From Alphaproteobacteria bacterium (GTDB taxonomy: Bacteria; Pseudomonadota; Alphaproteobacteria; Rhizobiales; Rhizobiaceae): a DNA stretch of 64,000 bases. Under the pieces are notes generated by a model. It was not told the DNA's origin. It saw nothing but the letters and a program-made list of their open reading frames with translations, and did not search any database. This document shows, one piece after another, positions 2,492 to 43,750 of the stretch. The stretch lies in NCBI GenBank assembly GCA_016861165.1, contig BOKV01000012.1, positions 21,401-85,400 on the forward strand, in the 5' to 3' direction. Each line of letters begins with the position of its first letter. Positions within the stretch are counted from its first letter, which is position 1. The position numbers were made by a program, and so were the translations under genes.

Positions 2492-3661
2492 TCAGCGCGC
2501 CAGGAAATCGCCGATCCGCTCGACCGCGCGGGCGATGTTGGCCTCCGAATTGGCATAGGACAGGCGGATGTAGCCCTCGCCGAGCACGCCGAAATCGGGC
2601 CCGCCAATGGTGGCGACGCCGGCCTCCTCCAGCAGCGCGGCGGCGAGCTTCTTTGCCTGCCAGCCGGTCGCCGAAATATTGGGAAAGGCATAGAAGGCGC
2701 CCTTCGGCACGCGGCAGGAGACGCCGGGCAGGGCGTTGACGGCATCGACGACCAGCCGGCGGCGCCGGTCGAAGGCGGCCATCATCGCGGCGGTGGCGTC
2801 CTGCGGGCCGTCGATCGCGGCGATGCCGGCATGCTGGGTGGGGGCGTTGACGCAGGACCAGCAATTGACGGCGAGCTTGCGGACCTTGTCGATCAGCCGG
2901 TCGGGCCAGACCGACCAGCCCATGCGCCAGCCGGTCATCGCCCAGGTCTTCGACCAGCCATTGAGCAGGATCAGGCGGTCGCGGATCTGCGGGAAAGTGA
3001 GCAGCGATACATGCTCTTCGCCGTCATAGGTCATCACGTCGTAGATCTCGTCGGAGAGGATGGCCAGGTCCGGCCTGTCGGCGAGGCCGGCCACCAGCCT
3101 CTCGATCTCGGCGCGCGGGGTAACGCCGCCGGTCGGGTTGGCCGGCGAATTGACGATGAGGAGGCGGGTGCGCCCGGTGACCAGCGTCAGGGTCTCCTCG
3201 GCCGAGAAGGCAAAGCCGTTCTCCTCGCGGATCGGCACCGGCACCGGCGTGGCGCCGGTGAACTCGATCATCGAGCGGTAGATCGGAAAGCCCGGATCGG
3301 GATAGAGGATTTCGGCGCCGGGCTCCCCGAACATCAGGATGGCGACGAACATCGTCACCTTGCCGCCGGGCACGATGACGACGCTGTCGGGCGACACCTC
3401 GACGCCGGTCGTCGCCAGCGTGCGCCGGGCGACCGCCTCGCGCAGGGCCAGGATGCCGGTCGCTGGCGTGTAGCCATGATGGCCGTCGCGCAGCGCCTTG
3501 ACGGCCGCCTCGACGATATGCGGCGGCGTCTGGAAGTCCGGCTGGCCGATGCCGAGATTGATGATGTCGCGGCCCCGCGCGGCAAGCGCGGTGGCCCGCG
3601 CGAGCACGGCGAAGGCGTTTTCCTCTCCGATGCGGTCGAAGGCGGCGATGGTGTGGAGCAT
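2492..3661 (-). CDS. Pyridoxal-phosphate-dependent aminotransferase (class I/II, aspartate/aromatic type)
   Basis: The homologous part of ORF 2492..4480 begins at MLHTIAAFDRIGEENAF (ATG at 3661). Motifs present: INLGIGQPDF, NSPANPTG, NGWSKTWAMTGWR. The upstream 270 codons have no coding character. Confidence 0.9.
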   Translation of the reverse strand: MLHTIAAFDRIGEENAFAVLARATALAARGRDIINLGIGQPDFQTPPHIVEAAVKALRDGHHGYTPATGILALREAVARRTLATTGVEVSPDSVVIVPGGKVTMFVAILMFGEPGAEILYPDPGFPIYRSMIEFTGATPVPVPIREENGFAFSAEETLTLVTGRTRLLIVNSPANPTGGVTPRAEIERLVAGLADRPDLAILSDEIYDVMTYDGEEHVSLLTFPQIRDRLILLNGWSKTWAMTGWRMGWSVWPDRLIDKVRKLAVNCWSCVNAPTQHAGIAAIDGPQDATAAMMAAFDRRRRLVVDAVNALPGVSCRVPKGAFYAFPNISATGWQAKKLAAALLEEAGVATIGGPDFGVLGEGYIRLSYANSEANIARAVERIGDFLAR

Positions 3662-3663
3662 GA

Positions 3664-3888
3664 TCAGGTTTCCGGCGCCAGTGCGGGCGTGATGTCGGTG
3701 TGGAAGAAATCGTTGCGGGCCAAGAGCAGCGGCAGATCGCGGTATTTGGCGACCGCGCAGACCAGGCAGTCGCCGAATTCGAGCTGCCCGGGATGACCGC
3801 GCGCGACCACGCTCATGCTTTCGCCGGTGCGGCGCCCGATCATTCGGATCAGCGCTTCGGTCTTCTTGTCGGGTATGGTAATCGCCAT
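3664..3888 (-). pseudogene. Collapsed vapBC remnant: VapB-like N-terminus fused in frame to a PIN (VapC) C-terminus
   Basis: The 74-aa ORF starts like VapB (MAITIPDKKTEALIRMIGRRTGESMS). It ends like VapC (FGDCLVCAVAKYRDLPLLLARNDFFHTDI). The middle of both genes is missing. Confidence 0.55.
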
Positions 3889-3958
3889 TGGTCCGGCCCA
3901 TGGGCTTCCTTGCTAGGAGGCACACATTGCCATGCAGCCATAAGACAAGAGTTGCGAC

Positions 3959-4651
3959 ATGTCGCCAGAAAACCTCTCCGGCTGGACGCCGCGTCCCCGG
4001 CCGCGACGCCGGGTCTTCGAAGGCCGCCGCGTGCGGCTGGAGCCGCTGGACGCGGATGCCCACGGCGACGCTCTCTACGCCGTTTCCACCATGGCCGATG
4101 CCGGCGAGCGCTTCCGCTGGCTGGCCGAGCAGCCGCCAGCGGACCGGCGGTCGTTCCAGCCATGGCTGGAACGGGTGCAGGCGAGCGACGATCCGCTCTA
4201 CTTCGCCGTCATCGATCTGGCCAGCGGGCGCGTGGCCGGCCGCCAGACACTGATGCGCATCGACGCGGGCAACGGCGTGATCGAGATCGGCGCCATCCTG
4301 TGGAGCGCGCTGATGGCGGGCCGGCCGGCGGCGACGGAAGCCTTCTTCCTGTTCGCCGCGCACGTCTTCGACGACCTCGGCTACCGCCGCCTCGAATGGA
4401 AATGCGATTACGACAATGCCCCGTCGAAGCGCGCGGCACTTCGCTTCGGCTTCACCTTCGAGGGCGTCTTCCGCCAGCACATGGTGGTCAAGGGGAAGAA
4501 TCGCGACACCGCTTGGTTCGCGATGATCGACCGCGACTGGCCGCTGGTCCGCGCCGCGCTGGCGGCCTGGCTCGATCCGGGCAATTTCGATGCCGAGGGA
4601 CGCCAGATCAGGCGGCTCGGCGACGTCCGCGCTTCTCTGGCCAGCCGCTGA
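3959..4651 (+). CDS. GNAT family N-acetyltransferase (RimJ/RimL-like)
   Basis: Motifs: VIEIGAILWSALMAGRPAATEA, RRLEWKCDYDNAPSKRAALRFGFTFEG. Confidence 0.8.
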   Translation: MSPENLSGWTPRPRPRRRVFEGRRVRLEPLDADAHGDALYAVSTMADAGERFRWLAEQPPADRRSFQPWLERVQASDDPLYFAVIDLASGRVAGRQTLMRIDAGNGVIEIGAILWSALMAGRPAATEAFFLFAAHVFDDLGYRRLEWKCDYDNAPSKRAALRFGFTFEGVFRQHMVVKGKNRDTAWFAMIDRDWPLVRAALAAWLDPGNFDAEGRQIRRLGDVRASLASR

Positions 4652-5677
4652 TCAGCCGGCCTCGGAAGGCGGCGGGCAGGTCGACTCGCGCACCCGCAAT
4701 TGCGGCGCGATCAGCACCTTGTCGCGCGCCACCGGCTGCCCGGCGAGGATCGCCAGCATGGCACGGGCGGCCCGCCGCCCCGCCTCCTGCTGGCCGTTCC
4801 ACACCGTGGTGAGCGCCGGCGAGGCGATCTCGGCCTCCGAAATGTCGTCATAGCCGGTGACGGCGACGTCGTGGCCCGGCACCAGTCCGAGCGAACGCAG
4901 CCCGCTCAGCACCCCGATCGCCACCAGATCGTTGAAGCAGACGATGCCGGTCGGGCGGATGCCTGCCTCGAACATGGCGCGTACGCTGTCATAGCCGGCC
5001 TTGCGCGTCGCCTGCGAGCCCATCTGCCAGGCCGGGTCAGGTTCGAGCCCGTGTTCGCGCATCGCGGTGAGGTAGCCCTCGCGCCGGTCGCGCCCGGTCG
5101 AGGTCTCGCGCCGGCCGCCGATGAAGGCGATGCGGCGATGGCCGAGCTCGATGAGATGGGTCGTGGCCATGCGGATGCCCTGCTTGTCGTCGCCGCGAAA
5201 CACCGGCGCGGTGGCGCCGGGCACCCAGCGGGCGATCATCACCACCGGCAGGCCGCTCTTCTCGATCTTGGCGATGTCGGCGGCCGTGGTGCCGATCGCC
5301 GGCGACAGGATGACGCCATCGGCGCCGAACTGCAGCAGGGTGTCGATGAAGTTGGTCTGGATCAGGATGTCGTCACGGTGGTTGCACAGCAGGAAGGTCT
5401 GCCGGTGGGCACCGAGTTCGTCCTCGATCGCCATCAGGATCTCGGCGAAGAACGGGTTCATGATGTCGTGGACGACGACGCCGATGATGCCGGAGCGCGA
5501 CGTGCGCAGGCTGGCGGCGCGGCGGTTGTAGATGTAGCCGAGCTCGACCGCGCTCCTCTTGATGCGCTCGCGCGTCGCCTCGGCGACCAGTGGGCTGTCG
5601 CGCAGGGCAAGCGACACCGTCGCCGTCGAGACCCCGAGATGTTCGGCTATGGTCGAAAGGGTGGTCTTGCTGCCCAC
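4652..5677 (-). CDS. LacI family transcriptional regulator
   Basis: N-terminal HTH (TLSTIAEHLGVSTATVSLALRD) followed by a periplasmic-binding-protein-like sugar-binding fold. Confidence 0.9.
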   Translation of the reverse strand: MGSKTTLSTIAEHLGVSTATVSLALRDSPLVAEATRERIKRSAVELGYIYNRRAASLRTSRSGIIGVVVHDIMNPFFAEILMAIEDELGAHRQTFLLCNHRDDILIQTNFIDTLLQFGADGVILSPAIGTTAADIAKIEKSGLPVVMIARWVPGATAPVFRGDDKQGIRMATTHLIELGHRRIAFIGGRRETSTGRDRREGYLTAMREHGLEPDPAWQMGSQATRKAGYDSVRAMFEAGIRPTGIVCFNDLVAIGVLSGLRSLGLVPGHDVAVTGYDDISEAEIASPALTTVWNGQQEAGRRAARAMLAILAGQPVARDKVLIAPQLRVRESTCPPPSEAG

Positions 5678-5759
5678 GCCCGGTCGCCCTCCTGTACGCT
5701 GCGATCCTTATGCCATCCAATGGCGGGGACGGGAAGCGCGGGGCGCGCGCGCGCCGCCG

Positions 5760-6218
5760 CTACGGGCCGGAGGCCGGCACGCTGTCGCCGCCGCGGCCGC
5801 CCGCGAGCCCGATCCTGACCTTTCTCAGGATCTTGCGCAGGCGCTTGAGCTCCTTGTCCGACAGGCGGCCGAACGCAACCGCCTCGGCCCTTGCCCAGGC
5901 CTGGTCGATCCGTTCGAGCAGGCCGGTGCCGGCCTCGGTCAGATGGACGTGGGCGCGCCGGCTGTCGCGCGGTGAACCCTGGCGGCGGACAAAGCCCTGC
6001 GCCTCCAGGCGCGCCACCATCTTGGAGACGGTTGGCGGGCGCACGCCGAGGGCCGCCGCCAGTTCGCTCATCGACTGGCCGTCCTGGCGGGCGAGCGTCT
6101 TCAGAAGGGTGTCCTGGCCGGAATAGATGCCGAGCTGCAGCAGGAGGTCGGCGCGCAGCGTCCGGCACAGCCGCGCCGCGTAGATCAGGCTGCCGGTCAG
6201 GTTGCCGTCCGCCTGCAA
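5760..6218 (-). CDS. MarR family transcriptional regulator
   Basis: Winged-helix motifs: MSELAAALGVRPPTVSKMVARLEAQGFVRR, DSRRAHVHLTEAG. Confidence 0.85.
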   Translation of the reverse strand: MQADGNLTGSLIYAARLCRTLRADLLLQLGIYSGQDTLLKTLARQDGQSMSELAAALGVRPPTVSKMVARLEAQGFVRRQGSPRDSRRAHVHLTEAGTGLLERIDQAWARAEAVAFGRLSDKELKRLRKILRKVRIGLAGGRGGDSVPASGP

Positions 6219-6437: not shown

Positions 6438-7418
6438 TCAGTCGACGGCAAGCACGATCTTGCCGATGTGGCGGCCTTCTTCCATGCGGGCATGGGCGGC
6501 GGCAGCCTCGGCCAGCGGGAAGGTGCTGTCCATGACCGGCCGCACGCGGCCGGCCTCGACGAGCGGCCAGACCCGGGCTTCCAGCTCGGCGGCGATCCCC
6601 GCCTTGAACTCGACCGGGCGCGGGCGCAGCGTCGAGCCGGTATGGGTGAGCCGCTTGGTCATCAGCTTGGCGAAATTGGCTTCCGCCCTCGGCCCGGCGA
6701 GGAAGGCGATCTGCACGATCCGCCCGTCAGGCGCGGCGGCGTCCCAGTTGCGCTCGATATAGGCACCGCCGACCATGTCGAGGATGAGGTCGACGCCGCG
6801 GCCGCCGGTGAAGTCGTGGCTGGCGGCAACGAAGTCCTCGGTCCGGTAGTTGATGGCCTGGTCGGCGCCGAGATCGAGGCAAGCCCGGCATTTGGCCGGC
6901 GAGCCGGCGGTGGCGATGACCGTGGCGCCGAACGCCTTGGCGAGCTGGATGGCGGTGGTGCCGATGCCGCTGGTGCCGCCGTGGACCAGGAACGTCTCGC
7001 CGGCCGTCAGGCGCCCGCGCTGGAAGACGTTGTGCCAGACCGTGAAGAAGGTCTCCGGTACCGCAGCCGCCTCCGCCATCGACAGTCCGGCGGGGATGGG
7101 CAGCGTGTTCGACAGGTGGGCGACGCACCACTGCGCGTAGCCGCCGCCCGGCACCAGCGCCATGACCCTGCGCCCGACCGCGGCCGCGTCGACGCCGGCG
7201 CCCGCCGCCGCGACCTCGCCGGCGATTTCCAGCCCCGGAATATCAGGGGCGCCGGGCGGCGGAGGATAGGCGCCCTGGCGCTGCAGGCAGTCGGGCCGGT
7301 TAACGCCCGCCGCCGCCACGCGAACGAGCACTTCGCCCTCGCGCGGCCGTGGCACCGGCCGCTCCTCGACGACCAGTACCTCCGGTCCGCCCGGTCGCGA
7401 TATGGCGATCGCCTCCAT
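6438..7418 (-). CDS. qor: NAD(P)H:quinone oxidoreductase (zeta-crystallin / medium-chain dehydrogenase family)
   Basis: Motifs: MEAIAISRPGGPEVL, LVHGGTSGIGTTAIQLAK. The ATG at 7418 has a GGAG upstream. An alternative ATG at 7436 would add 6 aa. Confidence 0.85.
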   Translation of the reverse strand: MEAIAISRPGGPEVLVVEERPVPRPREGEVLVRVAAAGVNRPDCLQRQGAYPPPPGAPDIPGLEIAGEVAAAGAGVDAAAVGRRVMALVPGGGYAQWCVAHLSNTLPIPAGLSMAEAAAVPETFFTVWHNVFQRGRLTAGETFLVHGGTSGIGTTAIQLAKAFGATVIATAGSPAKCRACLDLGADQAINYRTEDFVAASHDFTGGRGVDLILDMVGGAYIERNWDAAAPDGRIVQIAFLAGPRAEANFAKLMTKRLTHTGSTLRPRPVEFKAGIAAELEARVWPLVEAGRVRPVMDSTFPLAEAAAAHARMEEGRHIGKIVLAVD

Positions 7419-37767: not shown

Positions 37768-38514
37768 ATGGCAGGCCATTCACAATTCAAGAACATCATG
37801 CACCGCAAGGGCCGCCAGGATGCGGCCCGCTCCAAGGTATTCTCCAAGCTGTCGCGCGAGATCACCGTGGCGGCAAAGCTCGGCGTGCCCGATCCGGACA
37901 TGAACCCGCGCCTGCGCCTGGCCATCCAGGCGGCCAAGGCGCAGTCGATGCCGAAGGACAACATCCAGCGGGCGATCAACAAGGCGGCGGGCAACGACGC
38001 GGAAAACTACGAGGAGGTGCGCTACGAGGGCTACGGGCCGGGAGGCGCGGCGGTGATCGTCGAGGCGCTGACCGACAACCGCAACCGCACCGCCTCCAGT
38101 GTCCGCGCCGCATTCACCAAGGCCGGCGGGGCGCTCGGCGAGACCGGCTCGGTCGGCTTCATGTTCGATCGCGTCGGCGAGATCGTCTATGCGGCTTCGG
38201 CCGGCAGCGAGGAGACGGTCATGGAGGCGGCGATCGAGGCCGGTGCCCAGGATGTGCAGTCGGACGCCGACAGCCACGTGATCCTGTGTGCCTTCGAAGA
38301 CATCGGCGAGGTTTCGAAGGCGCTTGAGGCAAGGCTCGGAGAGGCGGCGTCGGTCAAGACCATCTGGCGACCGCAGACCATGGCGCCGCTCGACGAGGAC
38401 AAGGCCCAGTCGATGCTGCGGCTGATCGGCGTGCTCGAGGACGACGATGACGTGCAGAACGTCTATTCGAACTTCGAGGTCTCCGACGAAGTGATGCAGA
38501 AGCTGTCGGCCTGA
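37768..38514 (+). CDS. yebC: YebC/PmpR family transcriptional regulator
   Basis: [30 protein letters not shown]. Confidence 0.95.
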
Positions 38515-38591
38515 GCTCGCGATTCGGCCGGGCGTGATTGGGCGTGATCCCGGCGATGGCCGAATCAGCGCCGCCGGGCTACCATCGCGCC

Positions 38592-39113
38592 ATGACGGCG
38601 CGGCCCATCCGCATCATCGGCATCGATCCCGGGCTCCAGCGAACCGGCTGGGGGGTGGTGGAGGCGCGGGGCAACGCCTTCGCCTTCGTGGCCTCCGGCA
38701 CCGTGCGGTCGCAGCCGGCCGATGCGCTTGCCGTCCGGCTGTGCGCGCTGCATGACGGGCTGATGGCGGTGATCGAGGCGCTCGGGCCGGCCGAGGCGGC
38801 GGTCGAATCGACCTTCGTCAACCGCGACGGCGCGGCGACCCTGAAGCTTGGCCAGGCGCGTGGCGTGGCGGTGCTGGCGGCGGCCCGCTCCGGCCTCGGC
38901 GTGGCCGAATACGCGCCGAACGCGGTCAAGAAGGCCGTGACGGGTGTCGGCCATGCCGACAAGGTCCAGATCCGGGCGATGGTGGGCATGCTGCTGCCGA
39001 AGGCCGAGTTCGATTCCGACGATGCCGCCGACGCGCTCGCCATCGCCATCTGCCATGCCCACCACCGCGGCCGGGCCGAACTGGCGGCGCGGATAGCCAG
39101 TGCCGCGAAGTGA
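38592..39113 (+). CDS. ruvC: Crossover junction endodeoxyribonuclease RuvC
   Basis: [46 protein letters not shown]. Confidence 0.95.
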
Positions 39114-39156
39114 GGATGCGGTGAGATGTTCTTGACTTGTTCTGGTCCTCGTGCAA

Positions 39157-39179
39157 GGTAATACGCTGGAGGTATTACC
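39157..39179. promoter_or_regulatory. Perfect 8-bp inverted repeat GGTAATAC-gctggag-GTATTACC enclosing the vapB1 Shine-Dalgarno; candidate antitoxin operator. TTGACT -35-like hexamer at 39132..39137
   Basis: Read directly. It ends 1 nt before the vapB1 ATG. Confidence 0.5.
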
Positions 39180-39458
39180 ATGCGGGTAACCGTCAAGGGC
39201 CAGGTAACCATTCCCAAGCCCATCCGCGACCGATTGGGCATCGGTCCCGGCAGCGAGGTGGCGTTTGTGCCGAGCGGCGACCGTGTCGAGATGGTCAGGG
39301 TCGGCAAGGGCGATGGCCAGCGGTCGCGCAGAGCCATTCTTGCGGATTCGCTGCGGCGTCTTGCGGGTCTGCCTGGCGCAGATATGGCCGGCGCGCTCGA
39401 CGGCAAGCAATATACGGACTGGTTGCGTGGGCCGCGCGACGATGCCGATTCTGGTTGA
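39180..39458 (+). CDS. vapB: AbrB/MazE/SpoVT-type antitoxin (VapB-like), module 1
   Basis: MRVTVKGQVTIPKPIRDRLGIGPGSEVAF is a swapped-hairpin SpoVT_AbrB motif. It overlaps the downstream PIN gene by 17 nt. Confidence 0.85.
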   Translation: MRVTVKGQVTIPKPIRDRLGIGPGSEVAFVPSGDRVEMVRVGKGDGQRSRRAILADSLRRLAGLPGADMAGALDGKQYTDWLRGPRDDADSG

Positions 39459-39855
39459 TACCAATGTCATCATCGATGCGCTCCTCCCGGCGTCGCTCTT
39501 TCACCGCGCCGCCCGCGACGCCATGCTCGACCTGGTGGAAGACGAGCGGCTCGTGATCAACGAGGTGATCTGGTCGGAGTTGGCGCCAATGGCCGGCGAT
39601 GAAGAGGAACTGGCTGCCGTCTGCCGGCGTTTGCTGCTGGAACGCGAGGAGATCGGTTGGAAGGCGGCTTACCTGGCGGGCGAGGCGCACGCCCGTTACC
39701 GGCGGTCCGGCGGAATGCGCGAACGAACATTGCCCGACTTCTACATCGGCGCCCACGCGCTGGTCGCCGGCCACCGCCTGCTGACGCGCGACGCGGGGCG
39801 CTACCGAGCCTTTTTCCCGTCACTCGAAATCGTCGCGCCGGACAGCCATCCGTGA
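39442..39855 (+). CDS. vapC: PIN-domain ribonuclease toxin (VapC-like), module 1
   Basis: [12 protein letters not shown] (Asp1), SELAP (Glu), [19 protein letters not shown] (C-terminal Asp). ATG at 39442. Confidence 0.85.
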
Positions 39856-39865
39856 GAACCGAGGC

Positions 39866-40483
39866 GTGATCGGCAAGCTGAAGGGAATCGTGGACGCGAT
39901 CGGCGAGGATCACCTCATCCTCGATGTCGGCGGCGTCGGCTATCAGGTGCACTGCTCGACGCGCACACTGGCGAACCTGCCCGGTCCCGGCGAGGCGCTC
40001 ACCCTGTGGATCGACACGCATGTGCGCGACGATGCGATCCGCCTGTACGGTTTCCAGAGCGAACTGGAACGCGACTGGTTCCGTCTGTTGCAGACGGTCC
40101 AGGGCGTCGGCGCGCGCGTCGCGCTCGCCGTGCAGTCAACGCTGTCGCCGGGCGACCTCGCCTCGGCCATTGCATTGCAGGACAGGGGCATGGTGGCGCG
40201 CGCGCCCGGCGTCGGCCCGAAAGTGGCGAGCCGCATCGTCGCCGAACTGCGCGACAAGGCGCCGGCCTATTCGGGCGCGGCCGCGGCCGAGATCGGCCTG
40301 CAGCGGGCCATCGGGGCCGGGCTCGCCGCCACACCGGTCACCGACGCCGTGTCGGCGCTCGCCAATCTCGGCTATTCGTCGCAGCAGGCCTCCGGCGCCG
40401 TGGCGCGCGCGCTGAAGCAGGCCGGAGAGACGGCCGACAGCGCCCGCCTGATCCGCCTGGCACTGAAGGAACTGGCGGGGTGA
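39866..40483 (+). CDS. ruvA: Holliday junction branch migration protein RuvA
   Basis: [27 protein letters not shown], two HhH motifs ([24 protein letters not shown]). GTG start at 39866. Confidence 0.95.
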
Positions 40484-40505
40484 ATCCTTGCGCAAAGGAT
40501 GATTT

Positions 40506-40527
40506 CTTACTATTCTTGCATAGTAAG
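40506..40527. promoter_or_regulatory. Perfect 8-bp inverted repeat CTTACTAT-tcttgc-ATAGTAAG, plus direct repeat GTAAGGAA at 40523 and 40541; candidate vapB2 operator/promoter
   Basis: Read directly in the AT-rich 65-nt spacer between the ruvA stop and the vapB2 ATG. Confidence 0.5.
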
Positions 40528-40548
40528 GAATTGAACGAGGGTAAGGAA

Positions 40549-40836
40549 ATGGGAGCGTTGGCAAAGATCACCGCAAAAGGACAGATCACCCTTCCCAAGG
40601 AGGTGCGCGAACGCCACGGCCTGAAGCCGGGCGACCGGGTCGAGTTCGTCGAGGAGGGCGGCAAGACCTGGGTGAAGCCGCGGAACCTTAGAGCGGTTGA
40701 CCTGATGGGCATTCTCGGGCGGCCTCCATCCGGGAAGGCGCCATCCGTGAGAGAGATGGACGAGGCCATCATGAAAGCAGTGGCGGAGGATGACGAGCGT
40801 ATAGAGCGCGAGTGGCGTGAAGGTATCGATGAGTGA
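40549..40836 (+). CDS. vapB: AbrB/MazE/SpoVT-type antitoxin (VapB-like), module 2
   Basis: MGALAKITAKGQITLPKEVRERHGLKPGDRVEF. ATG at 40549 behind an AAGGAA Shine-Dalgarno. Confidence 0.85.
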   Translation: MGALAKITAKGQITLPKEVRERHGLKPGDRVEFVEEGGKTWVKPRNLRAVDLMGILGRPPSGKAPSVREMDEAIMKAVAEDDERIEREWREGIDE

Positions 40837-41234
40837 TCGGCGTCGACACCAACGTCGTCGTCCGCATCCTCAGCGAGGACGATTCTGCGCAGGTGAGGGC
40901 GGCGGTCGCACGCTTCCTCTCGGCGCGTACCGCGGACGATCCGGCCTATATCAGCGCTGTAGTCTTGACCGAGGCGGTCTGGGTGCTGCGGAGCAAAATG
41001 GGGTATTCGCGGCATTCAATCAGTTCGGCATTGGCGGTGCTGCTCGACAGCGGGGAATTGCGGTTCGAACATGCCGACCGGCTTCGCGCCCTGCTCGAGA
41101 AGCCCATGCCGGCGAAAGTGGAGCTCACCGACTATCTGATCGCGTGGTGCGCGGAATCTGCCGGCTGCTCACGGACCGTCACCTTCGACAGGCGCGCCGC
41201 CAAATCCGTCCCCGGCATGGAACTGCTCGCATGA
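40833..41234 (+). CDS. vapC: PIN-domain ribonuclease toxin (VapC-like), module 2
   Basis: IGVDTNVVVRIL (Asp), LTEAVWVL (Glu), TDYLIAWCAESAGCSRTVTFD. The GTG start overlaps the vapB2 stop (GTGA). Confidence 0.85.
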   Translation: MIGVDTNVVVRILSEDDSAQVRAAVARFLSARTADDPAYISAVVLTEAVWVLRSKMGYSRHSISSALAVLLDSGELRFEHADRLRALLEKPMPAKVELTDYLIAWCAESAGCSRTVTFDRRAAKSVPGMELLA

Positions 41235-41241
41235 GGGAGCA

Positions 41242-41862
41242 ATGGGACTGAAAATCACAACGCTTGCACGGCTACCGGAAAAGACTGACCGTGCCTTTTT
41301 TGTCTATTTTCTCGATTACGGCTGGGACGACGACCTCACACGGGCGATGTATGAAAACTTCGATATGCTTGCGGAAGTGGCGGCTGAAAATCGTGGTCTG
41401 CTAGTTGCCGGCCTTGATCGGACGGAGTTTGCCAACGAGGTGCTGAGTTGGCACCACGTTAACAACGATCCCGCCGATGACCTCCTGCCAGCCATCATGG
41501 TAACTGACGTCGAGCCACGCCTGCTGGCAGATGCCAGTGGGTTTGACTTCGGCGAGGTCCGGCAACGCCCAAGTTCACGTACGGCTTACCCCGAAAGGTT
41601 CGTTCTTATACCTCTAAGAGATATCTGCAACAGCGCTGCTGACGTTACCGAGTTATTGCAGAAGCTTGTCACGGATTTGCGCTCCGGACGCTCTCTTCCC
41701 GACTTCGAAATTTGCCGGGTGAAGGCCAAAGGGCCTGATGCTGCGGCAAACATGGTAATCCTTCAGCCAAACGTGGGCGGTATTGGTGTTGATTTGAAAG
41801 AGATTTATCGCTGGTCCAAAGAGAAATGGCAGTCGCTGTCGGCTGGTGGCGAGAAGTTGTGA
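41242..41862 (+). CDS. Hypothetical protein of 206 aa, no recognisable family; foreign composition
   Basis: GAGGGAG Shine-Dalgarno 4 nt upstream of the ATG, which lies 8 nt after the vapC2 stop. The first 60 nt are 48% GC and GC3 is about 50% by eye, against roughly 90% GC3 in flanking core genes. The stop overlaps the ruvB GTG. Confidence 0.7.
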
Positions 41863-42896
41863 GCAACCCGCCCCGCCTGGTCTCGGCCGATGAGCGCGGC
41901 GACGATCTCGATGCGTCGCTGAGACCGCAGTCGCTCGCCGATTTCGTCGGGCAGGCGCAGGCACGCGAGAACCTCAAGGTGTTCATCGAGGCGGCCAAGA
42001 AGCGCGGCGAGGCGCTCGATCATGTGCTGTTCGTCGGCCCGCCGGGGCTCGGCAAGACGACGCTCGCCCAGATCATGGCGCGCGAGCTCGGCGTCAATTT
42101 CCGCGCCACTTCCGGACCGGTGATCGCCAAGGCCGGCGACCTCGCCGCGCTGCTCACCAATCTCGACGAGAACGATGTGCTGTTCATCGACGAGGTGCAC
42201 CGGCTCAACCCCGCGGTCGAGGAGATCCTCTATCCGGCGATGGAGGACTTCCAGCTCGACCTCATCATCGGCGAGGGGCCGGCGGCGCGCTCGGTCAAGA
42301 TCGACCTGGCGCGGTTCACCCTGATCGCGGCGACGACGCGGCTCGGGCTGCTGACGACGCCGCTGCGCGACCGCTTCGGAATTCCCGTCCGGCTGAATTT
42401 CTACACGGCCGAGGAACTGGAACTGATCGTGCGGCGCGGCGCCCGCATCATGGGGCTCGCCCTGTCGGACGACGGCGCCAGGGAAATCGCCCGGCGCGCC
42501 CGCGGCACGCCGCGCATCGCCGGCCGGCTGCTGCGCCGGGTGCGCGATTTCGCCGAGGTCGCCGCCGTTCCGGTCGTCGACGCCGGGATCGCCGACGCGG
42601 CGCTGACGCGGCTCGAGGTCGACGAGAAGGGGCTCGACCAGCTCGACCGGCGCTATCTGGACCAGATCGCCCACAATTTCGGCGGCGGGCCGGTCGGCAT
42701 CGAGACGATCGCGGCCGCCCTTTCCGAGCCGCGCGACGCCATCGAGGACATCATCGAGCCGTTCCTGATCCAGCAGGGGCTGATCCAGCGCACTCCGCGC
42801 GGGCGCATCCTCACCGCCAATGCCTGGAAGCACCTCGGACTCGAGGCGCCGGCCGATCTCGCGGCGGCGCAGATGCGGCTGTTCGAGGAGGAGTGA
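41859..42896 (+). CDS. ruvB: Holliday junction branch migration DNA helicase RuvB
   Basis: [26 protein letters not shown] matches the usual RuvB N-terminus. Walker [19 protein letters not shown] at 41859 is preferred over the listed ATG at 41826. Confidence 0.95.
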
Positions 42897-42900
42897 GCGA

Positions 42901-43290
42901 ATTGCGAGACTGCCGCTCGACGCACCTATCCTGCTCGCGGCGATGCGGGCGGATGTGCACAGGCTGCAAACGGCCATCGCATCCATGTTGACCGAGCGGA
43001 GCGATCCGGTATTCGTCGGTGTCGCGAGCCTCGGGGAAATCGCGGTCAGGACGCGCCCTGGCAAGCCCGACAGCCCGGTCCCGCCGGCGGAGTTCGGTGG
43101 TTGCCTGGCAAATGCGGGCTGTCAGCTCCCGCCGATCAAGGCTACGGACGTCGTGACGGAGGTGCCGCCGGCTCCCGCAAGCCGATACCCCTTCGACCGG
43201 CTGCTGCTTGCCCAGTGCGCGGCCGAGGGCATGCGGCTGATCACGCTCGACCGGTCGCTCGCCGGCCATCCGCTTTGCGCCACGAGGTAA
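42901..43290 (+). pseudogene. Orphan, probably degenerate PIN-domain (COG3744-type VapC) gene with no canonical start and no antitoxin
   Basis: (I)ARLPLDAPILL...VGVASLGEIAV...YPFDRLLLAQC...LITLD aligns to the LLLDTH / SxWEIAIK / DPFDR / TxD pattern. The DPFDR Asp is replaced by Tyr. The only in-frame ATG (42820) lies 77 nt inside ruvB. GC3 is relaxed. Confidence 0.5.
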
Positions 43291-43294
43291 ACCC

Positions 43295-43750
43295 ATGTCG
43301 CGAGACAAGACCGTTCTCGCCAATCGGCTCATTCCCGACGGCCACGAGATGGAGGTGCGCGTCTACTACGAGGACACCGACTTCTCCGGCGTCGTCTACC
43401 ACTCCAACTATCTCAAATACATGGAGCGTTCGCGCACCGAGTGGCTGCGCCACCTGAAGATATTCCACACCGATTTGGAGAAGGACGACAGCGCCTTCGC
43501 CATCCACCGCATGAGCCTCAAATACGGGCCGCCGGCCAGGATCGACGACCTGCTCACCGTGCGCACCACGCTGCAGAAGCTGACCGGCGCCCGGTCGTTC
43601 CTGCGCCAGGAAGTATGGCGCACCGAGCCCGATGGTTCGCAGACGTTGTTGTGCGGCGCCGATGTCGAGGTCGCCTTCATCAACCATGGCGGCGGCGCCA
43701 AGCGCTTTCCCGACGACCTGCGCGCCCGGCTCACCGGGGAGGGCGGATGA
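43295..43750 (+). CDS. ybgC: Tol-Pal-associated acyl-CoA thioesterase YbgC
   Basis: VRVYYEDTDFSGVVYHSNYLKYMERSRTEWL is a 4HBT hotdog motif. Confidence 0.9.
   Translation: MSRDKTVLANRLIPDGHEMEVRVYYEDTDFSGVVYHSNYLKYMERSRTEWLRHLKIFHTDLEKDDSAFAIHRMSLKYGPPARIDDLLTVRTTLQKLTGARSFLRQEVWRTEPDGSQTLLCGADVEVAFINHGGGAKRFPDDLRARLTGEGG

Follow-up and report, generated by a model that had tools for sequence, protein, structure and literature searches.

A gene between ruvA and ruvB of a Rhizobiaceae genome belongs to an apparently undescribed family with a predicted thioredoxin-like core and immune-type effector fusions

In the ruv cluster of Rhizobium leguminosarum, ruvA is followed directly by ruvB (RL3989/RL3990) and a VapBC pair (RL3987/RL3988) occupies the slot between ruvC and ruvA (PMC11406972). 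The corresponding cluster was analysed here in a 64,000-nucleotide stretch of DNA from an alphaproteobacterium of the Rhizobiaceae (assembly GCA_016861165.1, contig BOKV01000012.1, positions 21,401 to 85,400; this whole stretch is referred to as the window and numbered from its first letter), in which an AbrB/PIN pair (pair 1) fills the same ruvC-ruvA slot and a different kind of insert, the open reading frame (ORF) ORF206, is found between ruvA and ruvB, behind a second AbrB/PIN pair, vapB2-vapC2 (Table 1). The order of antitoxin, toxin and third small gene, co-oriented and tightly spaced, is that of tripartite toxin-antitoxin (TA) systems (TAC and others), and an earlier note on the window had proposed such a system, with ORF206 as a recently acquired third gene.

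Two other groups of described proteins are close to ORF206 in different respects. Modular single-chain anti-phage proteins (Cap4, Cap5 and the PNP-type proteins of CBASS, bSEFIR, LmuA of Lamassu, and Avs) draw on the same palette of effectors as the homologues of ORF206, in which PNP, TIR/SEFIR, LmuA-like restriction endonuclease and HEPN domains are fused to the shared part and HNH occurs in a neighbouring gene; they differ in that the constant domain of the present family matches none of the PADLOC models, that no conserved cyclase, NTPase or SMC partner lies nearby and that ORF206 itself carries no effector. The b' domain of PDI, the b domains of ERp44 and Dim1/U5-15kD share with ORF206 a predicted alpha/beta core topology, the lack of CxxC and conserved residues at the predicted position of the thioredoxin groove, including a proline at that of the cis-Pro loop, and they are among its best (weak) Foldseek matches. 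However, they have no detectable sequence homology to ORF206, which differs further in its 30-residue variable insert, extra C-terminal sub-domain, conserved MGL N-terminus and bacterial cytoplasmic setting. By analogy, ORF206 would be closest in its working to the sensor half of the modular single-chain defence proteins, and structurally to the non-catalytic thioredoxin-fold binding domains. We propose, tentatively and with somewhat less than even confidence, that it is a binding or sensor module without redox function, drawn from the genes of bacterial conflict and present here as a solo protein in the ruvAB operon.

From sequence comparison, the family to which ORF206 belongs appears to be undescribed, widespread but rare, and outside every annotated family. 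A set of 5.8 billion proteins contained 84 full-length homologous clusters; an exhaustive HMMER scan at E<=1e-3 gave 184 homologous representatives, and 919 homologous clusters were obtained when the profile was derived from distant members, giving a family of at least 919 clusters in which every member is labelled "hypothetical" and most are 186-206 residues long. ORF206 itself gave no match to Pfam, NCBIfam, PADLOC or PHROGs with thresholds as loose as E<=1-10, in keeping with the statement of the earlier note that no domain could be recognised in it and with its choice as a candidate for something new. None of the PADLOC 2.0 models matched it at E<=10 (in homologues, matches were confined to the fused effector parts), PDB sequences searched with phmmer and the profile held no relative and returned chance matches only (e.g. 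Stu2p and PylRS), and no description of a thioredoxin-like domain in conflict systems was found in the literature. A 2303-residue match with 21 matched stretches (P0160) was rejected as a Gly-rich repeat artefact. The 84 full-length clusters, together with a low dN/dS (0.10/1.08) between two close homologues (L003 and L010), indicate that ORF206 is a real gene encoding a constrained protein under purifying selection and not a chance ORF.

When a single genome of each species was scanned with a sequence pattern, 85 of 185,579 species carried the family, and these are spread thinly across Bacteroidota, Acidobacteriota, Planctomycetota, Verrucomicrobiota, Firmicutes, Chloroflexota, Gemmatimonadota and Proteobacteria. 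The commonest member, from human-gut Bacteroidales (L172/L173, 4186-9739, at least 69 contigs), lies directly after NikA-like and relaxase genes on an integrase-bearing, mobilisable element next to groES/groEL, which also carries a large helicase-PLD nuclease gene. This position, the recombinases or relaxases near several other loci and the GC content of the family gene, which is below that of its flanks at 75 of 85 loci, would suit a counter-defence or sponge protein from mobile DNA, whose solo domain soaks up an immune signal or mimics a target and has become stranded in the chromosome, as would the small, acidic, effector-free form of ORF206. Against this explanation, to which we give a slim chance, the family had no carrier among 50,697 phage records and a single one among 72,556 plasmid records (an unannotated chromid), and the alphaproteobacterial clade is a stable chromosomal resident without mobility genes.

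The thioredoxin-like (TrxL) domain, of about 190 residues, stays constant at the N-terminus of proteins in which immune-type effector domains are swapped. Among the 50%-identity representatives covering the whole domain, 12 were much longer than 200 residues. The TrxL domain was found joined to PNP_UDP_1 in P0098, P0102, P0103, P0107 and L064 (Pfam E 1e-14 to 1e-17; PADLOC CBASS PN-superfamily effector 5.7e-22), to TIR/SEFIR in P0096 (TIR_2; bSEFIR 1.2e-38), to a restriction-type nuclease and a shared Cys-rich "domain X" in P0104, L053 and L071 (the nuclease of P0104 being weakly like PDC-M58A, 3.2e-7), to the nuclease only in L072 and P0116, and to a helical extension of about 120 residues with a conserved ERNPVLHG (Rx4H) in P0092 and its relatives. 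An AlphaFold2 (AF2) model of the P0092-type extension matched the HEPN structures 1o3u (probability 1.0, template-modelling (TM) score 0.65), 2hsb, 7ae6 and 5yep. Since the fusions are so varied (PNP, TIR/SEFIR, LmuA-like nuclease, HEPN), the domain is the constant part, and what varies is drawn from the usual set of immune effectors.

Some of the same components also occur as separate genes. In Acidobacteriota a nuclease-domain X gene lies immediately upstream of a solo TrxL gene (L028, L029, L035, L047, L052, L058, L156, L167 and L168), its nuclease being weakly LmuA-like (3.8e-7), and a gene for a 205-residue membrane protein is found 3' of TrxL in L028, L029, L034 and L058; the three genes form a candidate system (L028/L029, 6997-9193), near which other nuclease- and helicase-like genes were observed. 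In Selenomonadales an HNH-domain X protein, with a Cap5-like HNH part (PDC-M68A, 1.9e-23), is encoded three genes upstream of TrxL. Surveying the homologues disclosed no linkage to TA genes of the kind that the earlier note had suggested, while the link to defence that it had also raised remains, since members from other phyla have immune effector domains fused to the domain or encoded beside it. Another reading, a delivery domain of polymorphic toxins, was dropped: some 90% of the family is solo, secretion genes do not recur nearby and in several fusions the effector is followed by a further domain. Domain X (FDRPAF..ITDTI..LGTG...C.C..P.C) matches nothing in Pfam and, in other phyla, is also found behind HNH or PNP modules; a search for its homologues reached close acidobacterial relatives only. 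The TrxL-nuclease fusion genes of L053 (8001-9503) and L072 (Mucilaginibacter sp. FT3.2) have large serine recombinase genes on both sides, an arrangement suggestive of a mobile cassette, and L071 (Mucilaginibacter polytrichastri) encodes the C-terminal part in an ORF of its own, 90 residues long, possibly owing to a frameshift or decay.

The AF2 model of ORF206, calculated from the family alignment (pLDDT 79, pTM 0.79), predicts a thioredoxin-like alpha/beta core without CxxC, followed by a small C-terminal beta-hairpin/helix sub-domain (residues 150-206) that is an addition to the core. Foldseek searches of the PDB and BFVD with this model gave no significant match, and the weak ones (E 0.05-0.5, target-normalised TM mostly 0.3-0.54) were nearly all to thioredoxin-fold proteins (thioredoxins, non-catalytic PDI b', ERp44 and Dim1); HMMER and Foldseek, which the earlier note had named as a check, thus yielded no family match and weak structural ones, nearly all to one fold. 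The family alignment has nine invariant columns (L24, W28, N39, F63, W70, L82, P83, A84 and P92) and the recurring motifs MGL (at the N-terminus), LDYGW, EVLSWH.xN, LLPA, IPL..C and L.PN.GG.G. Met-Gly-Leu at residues 1-3 is nearly invariant across phyla and the first beta-strand starts from residue 2; apparent N-terminal extensions in the family are probably mis-called starts. No redox CxxC or CxxS motif was found: LDYGWDDDL stands at that position, and the sole conserved cysteine, C129, lies elsewhere. The invariant L82-P83-A84 precedes a strand, as judged from alignment and model together, and the strand and helix order of the model places IPL..C in the loop preceding the last core helix. 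The most conserved motifs, LDYGW, LPA and IPL..C, would therefore be predicted to lie in the three loops lining the substrate groove of thioredoxin-fold proteins, and with such motifs in all three the groove probably binds a protein segment or a small ligand.

The same residues could instead serve catalysis. Many thioredoxin-fold families are single-Cys enzymes, and the near-invariant polar residues D25, E66, S69, H71, N74 and C129 could be taken for those of a small enzyme with Cys129, His71 and Asp25/Glu66 as its active site, such as a thiol-dependent hydrolase or transferase with a nucleotide or peptide substrate, to which the fused effectors would be add-ons. Cys129 is replaced by Ser in P0007 and so is not invariant, no enzyme family was matched, and non-catalytic domains (PDI b', ERp44 b-type and Dim1) are among the closest structural neighbours; we regard an enzyme as distinctly improbable.

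Gene contexts of the clade containing ORF206 were known for 13 lineages, of which 10 (the window included) are embedded in the ruv locus and three are not. All ruv-embedded genes belong to one clade of 29 sequences (40/40 bootstrap, neighbour-joining tree) that excludes every non-alphaproteobacterial member and every fusion protein. The closest arrangement to that of the window, ruvA, MazE/PIN, ORF, ruvB with a 4-nt ORF/ruvB overlap, is found in L001 (68% identity to ORF206). In L169 (61%) and L005 (Maricaulaceae, 44%) the order is ruvC, ruvA, ORF, ruvB with a 4-nt overlap, and in L171 (42%) the same order has an 8-nt overlap; L090 (52%) has ruvA, 22 nt, ORF, 20 nt, ruvB; L009 (Salaquimonas, 63%) has ruvA, 33 nt, ORF; L170 (Roseicyclus, 44%) has ORF, 2 nt, ruvB; and in L003 (Phreatobacter) and L010 (both about 51%) ruvA and the ORF are followed by BrnA/BrnT on the opposite strand and then ruvB. 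Stop/start overlaps with ruvB of 4-8 nt were thus present in five of the ten lineages, two others have gaps of 2 and 20 nt, and where no TA module intervenes the ORF starts 11-33 nt past ruvA. By conserved co-oriented position and coupled translation, the gene is a member of the ruvAB operon in the ten lineages. Given its position between ruvA and ruvB and the usual overlap, ORF206 is expected to be transcribed together with ruvA and ruvB as one unit and to have its translation coupled to that of ruvB; the coupling had been proposed earlier from the GTGA overlap of the window, and this overlap recurs in relatives.

In the three other contexts, an enoyl-CoA hydratase gene is upstream of the ORF in L013 and L177, with a Na+/H+ exchanger gene downstream in L177, and the order in L175/L176 is priA, 229 nt, ORF, comF-like gene. 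The ORF of this last locus (L175, 2354-5458) is a deep-branching clade member, and its position downstream of priA is a second association with a branched-DNA helicase, which could be a coincidence or a functional hint. Outside the ruv clade, a homologue on a JGI contig (P0031, 41% identical) lies inside a formate-dehydrogenase-like operon (genes 2648-6195), where it overlaps an upstream 48-residue Fer2_4 fragment and lies 4 nt before the gene for the large catalytic subunit; it may have split a gene on insertion.

Pairwise ORF identity among lineages tracks that of RuvA (Spearman 0.71, 28 pairs) and RuvB (0.54, 36 pairs), with discordances for L005-L170, which are closer than expected, and for L171, which is more distant. 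Between L003 and L010 the dS of the ORF (1.08) is not lower than that of ruvB (0.48), which is evidence against the ORF having been transferred more recently. The lineages that share the ruvA-ORF-ruvB arrangement, the GTGA overlap and a deficit in GC content at third codon positions (GC3) are only 36-68% identical in the ORF, and in every one of the ten the GC3 of the ORF falls short of that of its two ruv neighbours, the difference being 0.07-0.42. In the window, the GC3 of ORF206 is 0.575 (overall GC 0.536; first 60 nt, 48.3% GC), compared with 0.875-0.914 in yebC, ruvC, ruvA, ruvB, ybgC and tolQRA and 0.72-0.81 in the TA genes. The earlier note, which had put the third-position value at about 50%, was therefore right that the composition is atypical, but the recent acquisition that it read from this is not supported, since relatives carry the gene at the same site and with the same low GC3, and since it has diverged in step with RuvA and RuvB. 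On these sequence data ORF206 appears to be a long-term resident and not a recent import. The lasting deficit would fit a patchy accessory gene that escapes the recombination-linked or selective forces keeping core genes GC-rich, a reading that has its basis in the literature on biased gene conversion and AT-biased mutation.

Such residence would also be explained if ORF206 were a lineage-specific branched-DNA processing factor that binds RuvB, RuvA or other repair motors and modulates branch migration or the rescue of stalled forks. The tight, co-oriented ruvA-ORF-ruvB order with start/stop overlap in ten lineages, which this role would account for as retention inside ruvAB, the divergence in step with RuvA and RuvB, the strong purifying selection and the deep-branching relative directly downstream of priA, which encodes a fork-processing helicase, all speak for it, as does the use of thioredoxin-fold proteins as protein-binding cofactors of DNA enzymes, of which Escherichia coli thioredoxin with T7 DNA polymerase is the established example. 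However, in the great majority of alphaproteobacteria ruvA is followed directly by ruvB, two clade members are found in the enoyl-CoA hydratase or Na+/H+ exchanger context, the rest of the family has no linkage to repair, the conserved residues are the same as in the effector-fused homologues, and the persistent GC3 deficit is typical of accessory and not of core genes. A repair factor is considered unlikely.

In the proposal of a non-redox binding or sensor module, the TrxL domain would use its conserved groove to bind without catalysis. The domain would gate the attached effector in the fused forms, and the solo form, ORF206 included, would act by binding alone, so that it might sequester or report a ligand, or regulate a partner whose gene lies elsewhere; ORF206 would persist as an accessory, conflict-related gene that borrows the expression of ruvAB. 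Several observations weigh against this proposal. About 90% of the family is solo and has no recurrent neighbour, as determined by all-against-all neighbour clustering and by Pfam and PADLOC analysis of 135 immediate neighbours, and the effector fusions may say little about the role of the solo protein. In raw counts, those 135 neighbours include a few PtuA/B, HamA, LmuA-like, AriA and methyltransferase genes and some recombinases and are mostly unrelated or housekeeping; outside the alphaproteobacterial clade the adjoining genes are chiefly housekeeping, with few for defence. No partner effector (domain X, restriction endonuclease, PNP, TIR or HEPN extension) was found in the window. The thioredoxin-fold assignment rests on Foldseek scores that are not significant, and hhalign of the family profile with E. 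coli TrxA was insignificant (probability below 1%) and aligned a different segment. Finally, the near-invariant Cys129, His71 and Asp25 leave room for catalysis, and the stable ruvAB position with one priA-adjoining relative could mean a role in DNA repair.

A bolder form of the sensor idea would make TrxL a new immune sensor domain whose solo copies in alphaproteobacteria are guards within the operon of the machinery they monitor. The ligand of ORF206 would then be RuvB (PriA for the priA-adjoining relative) or a phage factor directed at branched-DNA processing, and binding would link infection or DNA damage to a response that needs no dedicated effector; in a variant, ORF206 would be a thioredoxin mimic that baits phage proteins recruiting host thioredoxin. 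We consider a guard improbable.

The TA genes beside ORF206 are a separate matter. An AbrB/PIN pair is found upstream of the ORF in only two of the 13 clade contexts, the window and L001, and between these two the TA pairs are 43-47% identical, compared with 68% for the ORF, 68% for RuvA and 80% for RuvB. Two further contexts (L003 and L010) have the BrnT/BrnA genes, unrelated to AbrB/PIN, and the remaining nine (six ruvA-ORF-ruvB lineages and the three non-ruv ones) have no TA gene adjoining the ORF; family-wide, no PIN or AbrB gene recurs beside the gene. With TA pairs of two unrelated families on different sides of the ORF in few contexts, the AbrB/PIN pair here and the BrnTA pair of Phreatobacter-like genomes are independent insertions beside it. 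The earlier suggestion that ORF206 is the third component of the vapBC2 module (a tripartite TA system, chaperone or accessory) had in its favour the position directly after an AbrB/PIN pair in the window and in L001, with a gap of 7-13 nt. The same pair is not conserved beside the ORF in homologous loci, being absent from 11 of the 13, the BrnTA genes lie on the other side and strand, the ruv cluster of Rhizobium has a VapBC pair without an ORF206-type gene, and ORF206 matches no known class of TA accessory protein (SecB-like chaperone, regulator or kinase) in Pfam, NCBIfam or PADLOC, its predicted fold being thioredoxin-like. ORF206 is not a component of vapBC2, and a third-component role is given scarcely any credence; unlike the third genes of tripartite systems, it is unlinked to the TA pair in relatives and not SecB-like, and the TA pair is a later insertion beside a pre-existing ruvA-ORF-ruvB order.

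The ruvC-ruvA-ruvB-ybgC cluster of the window holds three TA-type insertions, one per intergenic slot. The full order is yebC, ruvC, pair 1, ruvA, pair 2 (vapB2-vapC2), ORF206 and ruvB, followed 3' by a weak orphan PIN-like ORF without an antitoxin (Pfam PIN E=0.007 only), which is the third insertion, and by ybgC and tolQRA. Pairs 1 and 2 are not recent duplicates, as their antitoxins share the AbrB fold region only and their toxins the DTNV motif only. With three insertions here, BrnT/BrnA genes in the ORF-ruvB slot of relatives and a VapBC pair in the ruvC-ruvA slot of R. leguminosarum as well, TA modules have landed repeatedly in the ruv cluster, which resembles an insertion hotspot.

At the junctions of ORF206, the gene bounds, the 8-nt distance of the ATG from the last base of the vapC2 stop (TGA, 41232-41234) and the TTG TGA/GTG overlap with ruvB were all confirmed as first described. 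The GTG at 41859-41861 is in the ruvB frame and opens a typical RuvB N-terminus, with RuvB_N matched from RuvB residue 21 (E=5.6e-80, Pfam scan). The GAGGGAG motif described as the gene's own Shine-Dalgarno sequence is present, but its spacing to the ATG is short and poor for that function; in relatives of ORF206, GGAG is found 5-10 nt 5' of the start codon. The protein (23.1 kDa, pI 4.8, two Cys residues) has no transmembrane or hydrophobic segment (top 19-residue Kyte-Doolittle mean 1.04), as the earlier note had said of transmembrane segments. A repeat search around ORF206 found no flanking repeats hinting at a cassette or transposon, a promoter/terminator scan gave nothing useful, and Rfam models detected no RNA in 38400-43400.

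Two short repeats were observed in the spacers of the cluster. A perfect 8-bp inverted repeat, CTTACTAT-N6-ATAGTAAG, in the ruvA-vapB2 spacer is a likely operator for autoregulation by the AbrB-type antitoxin; if so, the TA promoter would drive transcription of ORF206 and ruvB. The ruvC-abrB1 spacer holds a perfect alphaproteobacterial LexA-type direct repeat, GTTCTTGACTTGTTC, one of two perfect matches in the 64 kb. In L003 a LexA-type repeat lies just upstream of ruvB, at 7054. SOS control of the window locus is not claimed, as the LexA box is not conserved upstream of ruvA in relatives.

Table 1. Features of ORF206 and the surrounding ruv cluster, in window positions
Feature	Position	Strand	Description and basis
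ruvC	38538..39113		
LexA-type direct repeat	39128..39142		ruvC-abrB1 spacer
AbrB/PIN pair 1	39180..39855		between ruvC and ruvA
ruvA	39866..40483	+	conserved upstream partner of ORF206 in the clade; synteny
Inverted repeat	40506..40527		ruvA-vapB2 spacer; putative operator
vapB2 (AbrB/MazE-type, 40549-40836) and vapC2 (PIN, 40833-41234)	40549..41234	+	TA module between ruvA and ORF206, outside the ORF206 unit; Pfam
GAGGGAG Shine-Dalgarno-like motif	41233..41239	+	overlaps vapC2 stop; 2 nt from ATG
ORF206	41242..41862	+	ATG to TGA, 206 aa; predicted acidic cytoplasmic protein, apparently a solo member of an undescribed thioredoxin-like family; ORF call, homologues, AF2 model
LDYGW motif, codons L24-D25-Y26-G27-W28	41311..41325	+	predicted strand-to-helix junction where thioredoxins carry CxxC; no Cys; (near-)invariant columns
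E66-V-L-S-W70-H71..N74 and invariant L82-P83-A84	41437..41493	+	predicted cis-Pro loop position, by thioredoxin-fold topology
Variable linker, aa 101-117	41542..41592	+	low confidence, pLDDT below 50, disordered in the AF2 model; length-variable in alignment
P124-L125-R-D-I-C129 (IPL..C motif)	41611..41628	+	near-invariant Cys; alignment
C-terminal sub-domain	41689..41859	+	predicted beta-hairpin, L174-x-P176-N-x-G-G180-x-G182 loop and two helices; alignment and AF2
GTGA overlap	41859..41862	+	ORF206 stop and ruvB GTG start share bases (translational coupling)
ruvB	41859..42896	+	conserved downstream partner of ORF206; RuvB_N and synteny
Orphan PIN-like ORF	about 42901-43290		3' of ruvB

The logic of a constant module with swappable effectors and solo copies is already known in kind, while the family itself is undescribed. 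At least 919 clusters that carried no annotation are now defined as a family, whose architectures place it in the gene pool of bacterial immunity and conflict, and the domain found in ORF206 may be an unrecognised immune sensor module. The fused forms (TrxL-PNP, TrxL-TIR, TrxL-nuclease and TrxL-HEPN) and the split acidobacterial operons provide an entry point for work on phage defence, and a tempting mis-annotation as a tripartite TA system is removed. One clade of the family is captured inside a core DNA-repair operon, where an accessory-looking gene has been kept across alphaproteobacterial lineages despite a large GC3 deficit, and the ruvAB case is relevant to two questions, how core operons come to retain accessory genes and why the composition of such genes fails to ameliorate.

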